From: Octopus vulgaris
Taxonomy: Eukaryota
NCBI GenBank assembly: GCA_951406725.2
Contig: OX597815.1
Span: 122,264,001 to 122,328,000, forward strand
DNA length: 64,000 nt
Direction: 5' to 3'
Shown here: piece by piece, positions 13,901 through 37,900 of the stretch
Layout: the number at the start of each line of letters is the position of its first letter
Position numbering within the stretch: position 1 is the first letter of the stretch
Position numbers and translations under genes: made by a program
Notes under the pieces: generated by a model
Seen by the model: the letters and a program-made list of their open reading frames with translations, nothing else
Databases searched by the model: none
Told to the model about the DNA's origin: nothing

Positions 13901-16900
13901 AAATGATGATGAAGAATGATATTTTTGAGTTTTTAACAATGCACTGAAGCACCTCGTAAAAGTTAGCATACCTATTAAAATCTAATGAAATGACATGTTT
14001 AAAACAATCAATATTCATTAAATATATATCATTTAATGAATGACAAAAGTGTAGCAGTTTGGCTCTGGGGAAGCTATAAGATGTTGCATGAACACTCAGT
14101 GCTGGGTGCATGTTTGCTTAAAACAGAAACAGCTGTAAGCAGATCAAAGTGATTAAGTAACTCCTGTTCTTATGTCATTCATTAATTGATATTATATGAC
14201 TGTTTACTACTGTAAAGCATGAGTATATCGAGTTCTAACAACTGGCATTTAGTATCCCTATGCCTAAGCAGAACTATCATATATGTGTATAGATATCATC
14301 ATCATCATTTAACGTCCATTTTCCATGCTATCATGGGTTGGAAGGTTTGACAGGAGCTGGCTAAGCAGAAGACTGCACCAGGCTTCACTGTCTGTTTTGG
14401 CAGGGTGTTTTATGGCTGGACGCCCTTTCTAGATTTAAAAATGGATATTAAACATGACCAAGTTACATTTTTTAATATTCTAAGTACATGGGAAATGGAT
14501 GTAATTGCTGTAAAGGTGTAAATAGAAATAAAATGCAAGCTTTTAGATTAATGAAATATAAATAAATGATTTACCTGCTGATGCTTTGGGAAGAACAATA
14601 ATCTCAGTTTCCAATGGAAGACTAAGTCCAACTTCGTTAAAAGCCATGACTCTAAATTGGTAAGAATCTCCGGGTACAAGGCTTCTGATATAAGCATTAG
14701 TAGAATCAGCAGACACACGAGTACATTTTCGCCAGGCACTGTTTCGTCTGTCAAACCTTTCAACAATATAACCGAGTATACGAGCTCCACCATCCATAAC
14801 AGAGGGTGACCATTCAATGGTAACATTGTCTTCATTAACATCTTTGATAATTATTGGCCCAATAGGAACTGATGGGCAACCTGGACGAAAAACAAAAACG
14901 AAAATGGTATAAGCATTAATTTCATTTTTACTCACTTGTAATATATGTTTAATTTATTTTATTAAGTTATTAGCTTCATTCATTGGACTGTAGCCATTTG
15001 GGGTGCACTGCTTTCAAGGATATTAAACAATTATGTCAAACTCAGTACTTATGCTAGCTTGGAATTTATTTTATTGATTTCTTATTTTTAGATTACTAAG
15101 TTGCCCCTTGACATAAAAGGACATAATACCTTATTTGCATAAGTAAACAAAAACACAGCTATAGGTACTGACAAACATACACACATGTGGCATAGCTGTG
15201 TGGTAAGAAACTTACTTCCCAGCAATATGGTTCTGAGTTCAATCTGACTGCATGTTACTTTCAGCAAGTACCTTCTACTATAGCCTCAGGCTGACCAAAG
15301 CTTTGTGACTGGGTTTAATAGATGGAAATTGGAAGAAGCCTATTGTGTGTATGTGTATATATATATATATATATATATATATATATATATACATACATGT
15401 GTATGTGTCTATGTATATGTGTGTTTGTGTCTGTCCCCAACCACTGCTTGACAACCAGTGTTGTTTTGTTTATGTCCCTGTTACTTAGCAGTTCAGCAAT
15501 AAGAAACAAAAACAATAAGTACAACACTTTAAAAAATAAGTACTGGGGTAAATTTGCTCAATTAAACCCTTCACGGTGGTACCACAGCATGGCTACAGTC
15601 TAATGACAGAAACAAGAAAAAACTACATGAACACACACATGCATGCGTGTGCGCACATACACACACACAAATGTTTCTGCATGCACAGTCTCTGCCTAAG
15701 ACTTGCCCAAGATTCAATACTATGCGATCAAACCTAAAGCCACACACAGCTTCTTAATCACACAACTATATCAAAGTTCTGGATATTTCTTTGAATGAAA
15801 TTAGATAGGTTATTAATTGCAAGAAAATTTAATTCTTTTTATTTGTCATTCATATAATTGCAAATTTAGCTATCATTTGCTTTCATATTTGTATAAACCA
15901 ATATCAAAGTTTCAATTTCAATATAAAAATCATGTTTATTGGTTCTTCAAAATCATGTATATCTTCCTCAAGCTTTATGTACTGCAGATTAGTAAAATAT
16001 TGAAAAAAAAAAAATATATATATATATATACAATTGAAGAGAAAGATTCTATGTTAAACAAACCTGGGGCCTTCTTAGGTACAACTGTTTGAGGTAATTC
16101 TTTGTAGTCTCCCCAACCAGCAACATTCTTTGCTCTGATTCTGTAATATGTTTCAACATTTTCATAGAGGTCTCGGACTGTATATGAATGTACAGCAGCA
16201 TCCAGTGTAACAATTTCAGTCCAGTCAGAACCTGCCCAACTCTGTTCAATTGCATAGGTGGTAATTGGAGATCCACCATCATTAATTGGTTTTCTCCAGT
16301 AAAGGGAAGCAGACCATTGAGTAATTTGTCCAATATCAAGATCTTCAGGTACTCCAGGAAGTTCTATTGACAAAAAAGCAAAGTTATTATAAGAAATTTA
16401 CTTTAATATTTTTGATGGCATTTCTATATGAAGGCATTTTATTCAAGACTTTGAAAATTAGTTGAAAATTTTAAACCTTTGAATTCTATTTTATTCAAAA
16501 GGACCTTCCTAACCATTTGATGTTTTAAAAGATCATATATTTTTACAATTAAATATTATTAGGAATTGTATACAAAATAATTGTTTAAAATATTTTGTGC
16601 AGATGAATTCTAACAACAAAATCATATATGGGCCCTCAAGGGTCATATAGTCCAAGGATGAGAACCGCTGTTGAGAACTGTGTACTTCTACCAATACAAA
16701 TGATGAAAAATGCTTAGAATTTAAATATTTATAATCATGTTTCTTACAAAACTTTGTCAAATCTAAAATGTACAGACTGATGAAATATGTTTAATTTATG
16801 AATTACAAAATTAATTCTAACAAGTTTAAATCCATTTAAATATTCTAAAAAAAGGCTGTAAAATTTATAAATAAAAAAATAAAATCTTACCAATTGGTCT

Positions 16901-34900: not shown

Positions 34901-37900
34901 TTAATTTTTTATTTTTACATCTGCTTCCTTAACAAAATATCCCTCTATTAGAAAAGTGCTTAATAAATAAAGCACAAGAGTACAATGTCAGCTCATAATC
35001 AATGATCATATCAGAAAAAAAAGATAGAGTAATATTACCATTTTTAACTTTATATCTTTAATAATATTTTTACAACTTCAGTAATTTAAAACTTTTTCTA
35101 TAGCCAAAACTTCATTAAAAATTTCTTTGATATTATCACACACAGTTACACCATTGTAATTGATAAAAATAAAATTAAAGCACAGCGATGTGAAAAATGA
35201 GAGCACCCAGTGAAGAACTAAAAGGAATAGCAGTTACAGTGTTAAATTAGAGATTTTTAAAATGACATCTTCCATTCCTTCACAAACTTATACATTATAA
35301 TAATAACCATTAAACACACTGGATAATATAAAGTATAAGGACAAGAATTCCATATTTTGGGGCAACTACAGATTATATGTATAATGTATTCTACAGAAAT
35401 ATGACATAATCAACATCTCGAGAGGTTTAAGGATTACACTGTTTCATTCTATGCTTTACCTTGCTCTAGGATTGCAAAAGTTTAATCCCTGAAATAGAGT
35501 GTAATATAGTAGTCACAAGCCCAAAAGATACAATACAATATTGTGGACTTATAAATATAATTTCTATGCATCAGTGTCCCATTTCCTGGCTGTTGAATAC
35601 TTCATGTAGAATCCATTTTTGACTCATAATATAGTCATCTCTTCACTAAATGTGACTGATTTTTTGTTATTGTTTTTAAGCAGGTGCTGCCTGATACATG
35701 CAACACAACATTTAAAAGCTGTCATAATTGATCGTAGAACTATTCACCCATCTATCCATTTTAGTAGGAAGTATTTTAAAAGAAAGCTATCAGATATTAC
35801 AAAACTTACTGAATGGACTCTTTGGAATAACAGCATCTGATATCAAAGGATCAGATTTTCCAACAGAATTTACTGTAGAGATTCTGAAGAAATATTCTTG
35901 ATTTTCCTTCAATGATTGTGCACAATAACTTGTGGTAGTTGATGGTACTTTAGCAATTGTAGTCCAAGAGGATTTCCAGCTTTCCCTTTTATCTATGATA
36001 TATGAAATAATAGGAGAACCACCATCGTGTTCACTGGGTTTCCATGAAAGAGCCAAATATGTTCTTTGAATATCACTGAAAACAACTGGTCCAATTGGTG
36101 GGGATGGTTTTTCTGAAAAAGATAAATTATTTAATCAAGTTCCAATTATACAGATTCACTGCAATAACTGACAACAACATCTGTTGATTTGATTTATTTC
36201 TATTGGCTCATGGCATTCAAAATAATTTTACTAATTAATATTAAATTGCTTCTAAGAAAAAAATAACAAAATTTTAAGCAATTTGCAATAAGTACAAATC
36301 TGAATAAATTTCCTGGAAAAAGTTTTAATAAAATTCAATCTTCACTTCTTTTAATATTTGTATTTATATTAGGATTATATAATAATAATAATACAAAGGA
36401 AGTAACTGAACAATTGAATATTACATACCAGCTTCCTTTTGAGGTACAATAGCAGATGTAGTTTCTGCATGCTCTCCGGTACCAACTTTATTCTGGGCTG
36501 AGACAGCGAAAAAGTAAGGAACACCAGTTTTTAAGAAATCAGCTTTGTAATATTCTTCACCAAGTTTGGTTGTTGCAATCTTGTTCCATTTAGTAGATCC
36601 TTCTTCACGCATTTCTATAATATAATTTGTAATTTTGGATCTTCCATCCTCTTTTGGTGGTTTCCAGTCCATAACAACATAATCTAATCCCACTCTTGTT
36701 GTTCTTAAGTCAACAGGACTTCCAGGTACAACTATTAAATTAAACAAAATAAAAATAATAAAGTAACAAAAAGACTTAAATCGTTATTTATGAAATAATA
36801 AACCAGAATATTAAAAATATATATTTCTTTTATTGAAACAATAAAGTAACATTTTAGAAATAAGCTAATTTTTAATTATAATAATTTATTTTCAAAATTA
36901 AGAATAGAAATGAATATATACCTATATTTTTCTGAGGTTGTACAGGTTCTGCTGACTCTAAAGGCTGACTTACTCCTTCTTCATTAAATGCAGAAATTCT
37001 GAAATAATATTCGGTGTCATCTCTAAGGTCAAAAACAGTTAATTTGGTTGTTTTACCATCAGTTTCACCAACTTTGACCCATATAGGTCGGGCTCTAGCT
37101 CTCATTTCAATGATATAGCCAAGCAATGGAGACCCTCCATCTGATCTTGGTGGATTCCAAACAACATCACAGAACCTATCTGATACATTATCATATACCA
37201 CTGGTCCCAGTGGAGATGTTGGTTTACCTAAAATATCAAGAAAAATTATTTTTAAAAATTATAAAAAAATAATGAGAAAATTGTTAGAAATAAATGTACA
37301 AAACTGAATATTATAGAATGTTTCAAGTAGTGAAAACCTACCAAATGGACTTTTGATCTTTGTTGTTAAATCAGTAACAAGAGGATCACTGTTACCAACT
37401 CTATTGACAGCAGTTACTCGGAAATCATATTCAGTGTCTTCAGTCAAGTCTTTAATATTATAAGATGTTATATTTGCATGTACACGATCAATTTGACTCC
37501 AGAATGATCGAATAGACTCTTTCTTTTCAAGTATATAACCTGTGAGAGGTGAGCCACCATCATCTTCAGGAGCATTCCAGCTGATACTGGCAGAGTTTTT
37601 GAGGACATCAAATACTTTGATAGGACCTCTTGGTATGGATGGAATAGCTGAATAAATAAATATGAGAAAGAAACCATAAATATTAATACATAGTTAATAA
37701 AATATATAAACAAGAACAGAAAGATGGAAAAACTATTTTGTACTATACTACATTTCTGATATTGTTTTGCTTAAAAACATATATCTACATGAAAAACATA
37801 CTTTAATGAATTTTAAGCTTATAAAATTATGAACTACTTAATATATGCAATTTTAATTATGTTCTTGAAATTAAATAAGAAAAAACATACCTAAAGGTCG

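Follow-up and report, generated by a model that had tools for sequence, protein, structure and literature searches.

The A-band part of vertebrate titin is the closest described system of zoned super-repeats, with a D-zone of six repeats of seven domains, a C-zone of eleven repeats of eleven domains and immunoglobulin (Ig) domains that separate groups of two to three fibronectin type III (Fn3) domains. The titin A-band binds the thick filament, with a repeat matching 43 nm. In protostomes, I-connectin/D-titin (sls) is characterized by poly-Ig and PEVK regions at the N-terminus and by synteny with zormin. Partial sequences of connectin-like giants are also available from annelids and amphioxus. 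The D and C repeats of titin have been assigned two and three myosin levels, respectively, at a spacing of roughly 4.0 nm per domain (PMC7427331), and [N/Y]PF has been given as the titin linker motif (PMC10665226). For protostomes, reviews such as PMC12198301 assign the function of the A-band to twitchin/projectin and that of the elastic element to I-connectin; in the portion of this review covered here, a mollusc counterpart with super-repeats is undescribed and the string 'mollus' is absent, and 'titin' is absent from the portion covered of PMC5430041. Here, we analyzed a stretch of 64,000 nt of the Octopus vulgaris genome (assembly GCA_951406725.2, contig OX597815.1, positions 122,264,001 to 122,328,000), hereafter the window, which contains the 3′ part of a giant titin-family mollusc gene, namely its Ig-free Fn3 chain tail. 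No description of this gene or of its repeats was found in the literature as judged by titles and the beginnings of abstracts, with most subscription journals outside the coverage.

Results

A profile derived from open frames of the window itself detected 58 Fn3 domains. All of them lie on the minus strand, from 64000 down to 1647, and each corresponds to one exon. Exon 1 is truncated by the end of the window, and all 57 complete exons have AG/GT ends, phase 1-1 and lengths of 294-306 nt, exons 2-58 encoding 5775 residues. The shortest introns measure 114-139 nt and have canonical sites at both ends, in DNA with a GC content of 32% and long TA microsatellites. This exon numbering agrees with that of the initial annotation, as do the coordinates (e.g., exon 31 at 37227-36922 and exon 55 at 17187-16891). 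Pfam fn3 was assigned in the three exons tested, the closest PDB sequence matches were titin A-band chains, MyBP-C and myomesin, and the closest animal protein matches were titin- or twitchin-like. A profile of the domain class called C below scored about 60 bits per domain on titin chains, far above fibronectin, contactins and protein tyrosine phosphatases (PTPs). An Ig profile, for which 50 spacers were taken from named titins and twitchins, found no Ig domain in 1379 six-frame segments of the window (best E=0.35, versus 3.5e-12 for a control Ig). Neither a kinase nor an M-band Ig region was matched in the window downstream of the array, and the gene may continue below coordinate 1.

The basic unit throughout is a trimer of domains A-B-C, which is 301-305 residues long in all 18 trimers and 304-305 aa long in all ten upstream cases; SP[FYH] ends 16 of the 19 A domains and none of the B or C domains. 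Exons 1-30 (37342..64000) form a 9-domain super-repeat zone with three trimers and 914-915 aa per repeat, which runs off the high-coordinate end of the window. Exons 31-32 (36429..37227) are transitional and constitute, together with exon 30, the last upstream-type trimer. Four hexamers follow: exons 33-38 (31000..36112, 607 aa), in which A1 with the RESW motif introduced below, B1, a short C1, A2, B2 and C2 succeed one another, exons 39-44 (26777..30696, 607 aa), exons 45-50 (21356..26285, 603 aa) and the decayed exons 51-56 (16064..20734, 603 aa). Exon 57 (14575..14880) and exon 58 (1647..1952), the last Fn3 domain of the window, complete the array. The feature initially annotated, ending with exon 55, was correctly placed, but the conserved downstream zone runs past it to exon 58.

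Since the motifs had been chosen after looking at the sequence, periodicity was assessed against domains shuffled within their own mod-3 class, i.e., their trimer position. Identity in exons 1-30 was 0.595 at lag 9 versus 0.44-0.45 at lags 3 and 6, with p=0.0002 for period 9 and p=0.93 for period 6. The order was inverted in exons 31-54, where period 6 gave p=0.0002 and period 9 p=0.55, at identities of 0.402 for lag 6, 0.352 for lag 3, 0.373 for lag 9 and 0.386 for lag 12. The downstream 6-period is weak, amounting to about three identity points; one trimer position (34/37/40/43/46/49/52) shows it weakly, the other two clearly. Its p value was 0.0002-0.004 for zones from exon 31 or 33 to exon 54 and 0.02-0.06 for zones extended through exons 55-58; for all the zone ends tested and with either of the two scores, it stayed between 0.0002 and 0.061 and was weakest for zones that took in exons 55-58. 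A downstream period of 9 or 12 found no support (p at least 0.40 and at least 0.076, respectively). The proposed switch from nine to six domains, initially placed after exon 30, is thus real. Exon 30 is a clear 9-mer member, exon 31 is ambiguous, exon 32 still groups with exons 5/14/23 (support 86/86) and the forward 6-signal begins at exons 31-33, so that the zone boundary is a transition spanning exons 30-33.

Motifs were counted over all 58 exons. The motif [RK]E[ST]W[KR][ST]SW (RESW motif) is confined to exons 33, 39, 45 and 51, and [13 protein letters not shown] and ENP.G occur in exons 34 and 40 only, both as initially described. Of the two motifs assigned to exons 38, 44 and 50, [SA]FV..Y is exclusive to them, but FG[IV].AEN is present in exon 17 as well. 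The lengths reported for the shortened exons 35/41/47/53 (300/300/294/300 nt) are exact; nevertheless, nine of the 58 exons, among them 42, 50, 52, 55 and 56, are 300 nt or shorter, and shortness alone therefore does not mark the 6-phase. The two domain groups expected under a 6-domain period were recovered in a tree of window domains only, 33/39/45/51 with support of 91/82 and 38/44/50 with 80/85, along with 41/47 (96/88), 48/54 (88/89), 37/49 (93/74) and 34/40 (91/0); 35 and 53 were placed apart from 41/47. The two-zone array built from Fn3 domains only is hence borne out by the exon calls, the period tests and the Ig search.

Among the 9-mer classes, the most conserved is that of exons 4, 13 and 22 (62541-62236, 54042-53737 and 45399-45094), with 69-82% identity. 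Its members are strongly acidic, with a net charge of -6 each, which makes the class a candidate binding position.

Protein searches, which covered lengths of up to 2000 and 5000 aa, returned Fn3-only arrays from Lottia, Littorina, Bulinus, Lingula, Saccoglossus, Patiria and Diadema; cephalopod or bivalve orthologues were not obtained within these limits, beyond which full-length mollusc orthologues would lie. The snail and brachiopod relatives carry only hypothetical or 'like' names in their sources and comprise a Bulinus truncatus model with 40 contiguous Fn3 domains (Btru_006487, P0276), two Lottia gigantea models (LOTGIDRAFT_176120, P0008, and LOTGIDRAFT_141638, P0026), one of Littorina saxatilis (V1264_012463, P0022) and a 'twitchin-like' protein of Lingula anatina (P0010). 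P0276, P0026 and P0022, and more weakly P0010, are contiguous and collinear with exons 33-58. A domain-level alignment paired Bulinus domains 18-20 with exons 33-35 and domains 21-40 with exons 39-58, in order, while exons 36-38 had no counterpart in this model. The second, third and fourth hexamers thereby correspond to Bulinus 21-26, 27-32 and 33-38, the fourth also to Littorina 2-7; exon 57 is a positional match, with a weak score, to Bulinus 39 and Littorina 8, and exon 58 groups with the last Fn3 of both snails (SH-aLRT 98). Littorina 1-9 paired with exons 50-58 (z 2.74, next best 1.05), Lottia P0026 with exons 44-55, three exons missing, and Lingula 1-12 weakly with exons 47-58 (z 1.39 versus 1.12 for the next best). 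After the position of exon 58, the Lingula protein continues with two more Fn3 domains and an I-set-like Ig. The Bulinus and Littorina models end about 56 aa past their last Fn3; these 56 C-terminal residues are conserved between the two models and look like half of an Fn3 domain.

The register with snails follows the hexamer. When Bulinus 21-34 was compared with the window exons, the mean z was 0.99, 1.59, 2.46 and 1.27 at offsets of 6, 12, 18 and 24 domains versus 0.22, 0.07 and 0.26 at offsets of 9, 15 and 21, and Bulinus 21-38 has a 6-period of its own (p=0.0006). Among Bulinus domains of the same hexamer class, the positional partner scored highest for 18 of 23 exons (chance expectation 6.0), and non-orthologous Bulinus domains predicted the hexamer class correctly for 19 of 24 exons. 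In trees with snail rows, both with bootstraps that had not fully settled, the RESW class formed a single clade (95/97), 35/41/47 grouped with four Bulinus domains (98/89) and were joined by 53 (83/82), and 38/44/50 grouped with Bulinus 26 (91/91), Bulinus 32 and Littorina 1 falling outside. Since the Bulinus domains follow exons 33-35 and 39-58 in the same order and preserve the 6-period, the hexamer zone is, by this sequence comparison, older than the split from gastropods; its greater age, initially suggested from divergence alone, now rests on a domain-by-domain match with snails and, more weakly, a brachiopod. Other searches added little: a single exon as the query gave seven uninformative protein matches, an Atlas search with exon 38 gave generic Fn3 clusters only, and in a library profile search none of the 22 of 150 listed proteins that were chosen for dense Fn3 spacing appeared collinear by best hit, the layout check covering these 22; of the other 128, P0010 and P0026 were analyzed as described above.

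The upstream zone has a different history. Lag-3 identity is 0.647 in Bulinus 3-18, where lag 9 gives 0.474, and 0.782 in Lottia 3-16 (P0008, which shares the upstream trimer), each zone deriving from a different, recently copied trimer. Judged by these two fragments, which are all the snail upstream sequence compared, the 9+6 layout is not a conserved design, and none of the nine 9-mer classes of the window had a snail partner of its own in the joint tree. Each lineage thus seems to have rebuilt its upstream zone, invariably in steps of three domains. The exons upstream are closer to the second than to the first half of the hexamer in 31 of 32 cases (29 of 32 unadjusted), the RESW motif is absent from them, and Bulinus 1-2, directly before the trimer zone of that model, resemble first-half hexamer domains. 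These results lend moderate support to an upstream zone that would have been amplified from one A2-B2-C2 half inside the older hexamer array. The 9-mer does not look like a composite of six plus three domains, as it contains neither the RESW domain nor the short hexamer domain. Four-fold degenerate sites are 48% identical at lag 9 (216/447), compared with 41-43% for the remaining lags and an expected 38% for saturated sites; silent sites of the 9-mer copies are therefore near saturation and the 9-mer is no fresh duplication. For the 9-mer, neither a very recent origin nor an assembly artefact is likely. Matches between repeat copies are largely confined to exons, with intron-intron pairs outside the register check; one match, between exons 19 and 1 (552 nt, 65%), extends across a short intron into the following exon.

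The array shares several features with the titin A-band: Fn3 domains of the titin-type, intracellular kind, with titin chains as the top PDB matches, two zones of which the one with the short repeat is older and more diverged than the one with the long repeat, linkers of the xPF kind, the SP[FYH] ends of the A domains resembling the [N/Y]PF linker, and diverged domains on single exons. The 6:9 ratio of the repeats equals that of the two and three myosin levels of the titin D and C repeats. Here, however, Ig domains are lacking and the long repeat precedes the short one, whereas in titin the short repeat comes first; the initial proposal of a titin-like two-zone design thus stands for the zones and the older short repeat but not for their order. 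Moreover, the 11-domain repeat of titin derives from its 7-domain repeat, while the long repeat of the array consists of three trimers without a duplicated tail of the short repeat. The best titin type was A for 27, C for 28 and B for only three of the 58 domains, and homology of the trimer to titin A-B-C (AC/ABC order) was rejected on this basis. Without Ig domains, with three type-B domains and with a reversed zone order, the array is not a titin A-band member by architecture, yet it plausibly works like one.

With twitchin/projectin, the array has the three-module unit in common, and 37 of the 39 A and B domains resemble the first Fn3 after an Ig in twitchin, 15 of the 19 C domains the second. 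Twitchin is built, however, from Ig-Fn3-Fn3 repeats and a kinase, whereas the array is Ig-free and has no twitchin-type C-terminus in the window, where the C-terminal 993 aa of Octopus twitchin found no match. Identity with the twitchin of Octopus bimaculoides (P0365) was rejected (best diagonal z 0.44 versus 1.84-2.74 for Bulinus and Littorina), and by these comparisons the gene is separate from twitchin. Ig-free runs of titin-type Fn3 domains, 15-40 per model, are also present in titin-like proteins of ambulacrarians (Patiria P0277, Saccoglossus P0278, P0009 and P0134, Diadema P0011). There, 92 of 102 scored domains are of titin type B, versus three of 58 here, and periodicity is little; given this composition and the lack of collinearity, a common origin with the octopus array is unsupported, and judged by sequence these runs are a separate, second independent expansion. 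The type-B runs occur in models from sea star, acorn worm and sea urchin (P0277, P0278, P0009, P0288, P0134 and P0011), and four of the Saccoglossus models have neighbouring accessions and may be fragments of a single giant gene. A titin-like protein of the nemertean Lineus longissimus (P0309) has a regular arrangement of three Fn3 domains and then a gap, alternately of 185 and 194 aa and probably with two Ig domains each, a pattern that suggests a 10-domain super-repeat.

Beyond the array, a candidate alternative last exon lies on the minus strand between exons 57 and 58 (11790..12397); it encodes about 200 aa rich in S/Q/Y/H/R, has a polypyrimidine-AG phase-1 acceptor in frame with exon 57, ends with TAA and may lead to a product that lacks exon 58. 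It had no Pfam match and no usable Atlas match. The same 12.6-kb intron holds two LINE-type reverse transcriptase frames, each with a Pfam RVT_1 domain, on the plus strand (6106-8241, 711 aa) and on the minus strand (3673-5145, 491 aa), which are arranged head to head with long TA microsatellites on either side. Short repeats dispersed in the introns, 100-210 nt long and 75-87% identical (for example 42168-42373, 53217-53429, 39802-40001, 38807-38961 and 20168-20325) are probably SINE-like elements.

Discussion

The sequence history of this gene is well supported; its function is inferred. We lean towards a protein that would run along the myosin thick filament, by analogy with the titin A-band, where it would act as a scaffold or set filament length, and in which the trimer register would be under selection. 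The C-terminal hexamer A1-B1-C1-A2-B2-C2 has been kept domain for domain with gastropods. The upstream zone appears to be where the chain grows; it was amplified separately by lineage, as a 9-mer in the octopus and as a 3-mer in the Bulinus and Lottia fragments, with the A2-B2-C2 half as the probable source, and blocks of exons were likely duplicated by unequal crossing-over. Selection may maintain alignment with a periodic partner, for which the myosin filament is the simplest candidate.

Several observations weigh against this reading. At the spacing of titin, a trimer would span about 12 nm by our arithmetic, roughly 16% short of the 14.5 nm crown, and one trimer per crown would need about 4.8 nm per domain. 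The snail sequences are partial gene models that possibly skip exons, as Lottia P0026 does, and a 9-mer further upstream in snails is therefore possible. A plain, unadjusted best hit picks the positional Bulinus partner for only 11 of 23 exons, and prediction of the hexamer class from Bulinus fails for exons 35, 43, 49, 53 and 55. The 32 exons upstream that point to the second hexamer half are not independent and the margins of the A class are small; approximately unbiased (AU) tests did not reject an origin from the first half (p=0.10 and 0.35), which is why support for the A2-B2-C2 source is only moderate. Finally, the gastropod C-terminal tail was not found in the window, its weak matches there being to internal Fn3 exons only.

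The strongest alternative, which we regard as possible though doubtful, is that the super-repeats are a neutral record of block duplications in an intracellular titin-family spacer or elastic linker that needs length but no register. The lineage-dependent size of the upstream repeat (9 here, 3 in Bulinus and Lottia) would fit such a history, as would the decay of the 6-period towards the C-terminus, the nearly aperiodic long runs of ambulacrarians and a trimer length that misses 14.5 nm. It fits less well that all units and indels observed are multiples of three (9, 6, 3 and the missing exons 36-38) although phase-symmetric exons can be copied singly, that trimer length is held constant throughout the array and that positional identity with snails has been retained.

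A more specific form of the thick-filament reading would make the protein an independent, Ig-free mollusc ruler, with the trimer equal to one crown and the 6- and 9-mers to two and three, converging on the D and C repeats of titin, and would further have the number of upstream trimers, through lineage amplification and skipping of symmetric exons, set filament length; we consider this combination unlikely. Still less probable is a use of the exons as alternative cassettes of a Dscam-like or isoform-tuning kind, in which case a given product would contain few of the domains and the super-repeat would never form one chain. Symmetric phase-1 single-domain exons do allow in-frame skipping of any subset, the last exon has a candidate alternative, and scallop 'titin', which may be a different gene, is reported as several fibre-type isoforms (PMC5963113). 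The very short introns with canonical sites at both ends speak against cassettes, as do order and class shared with snail models in which the domains directly follow one another, and a strict A-B-C order with class-specific linkers suits a chain. An extracellular or cell-surface array of the tenascin, usherin or PTP kind, unrelated to the sarcomere, is highly improbable: matrix proteins commonly contain Fn3-only chains and the 5′ end, where a signal peptide would sit, is beyond the window, but the class-C scores, the titin- or twitchin-like closest matches and the Lingula relative that runs on into an I-set-like Ig all speak against it.

Under the favored scaffold or length-setting role, the finding bears on how molluscs build muscle. 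Thick filaments differ roughly tenfold in length between squid arm (7.4 µm) and tentacle (0.81 µm), according to PMC4757648, and the ruler form, if true, would provide a molecular handle on this difference. In any case, the gene adds to the known giants of titin type one in which an old hexamer zone is combined with a zone of growth, the latter seemingly rebuilt per lineage while the three-domain register was kept. If the protein resides on the thick filament, zoned super-repeats would have arisen independently a second time, and the gene would be a direct candidate for the control of filament length in molluscs; even if it does not, turnover of super-repeat order (3 versus 9) stands beside a frozen zone within one gene.

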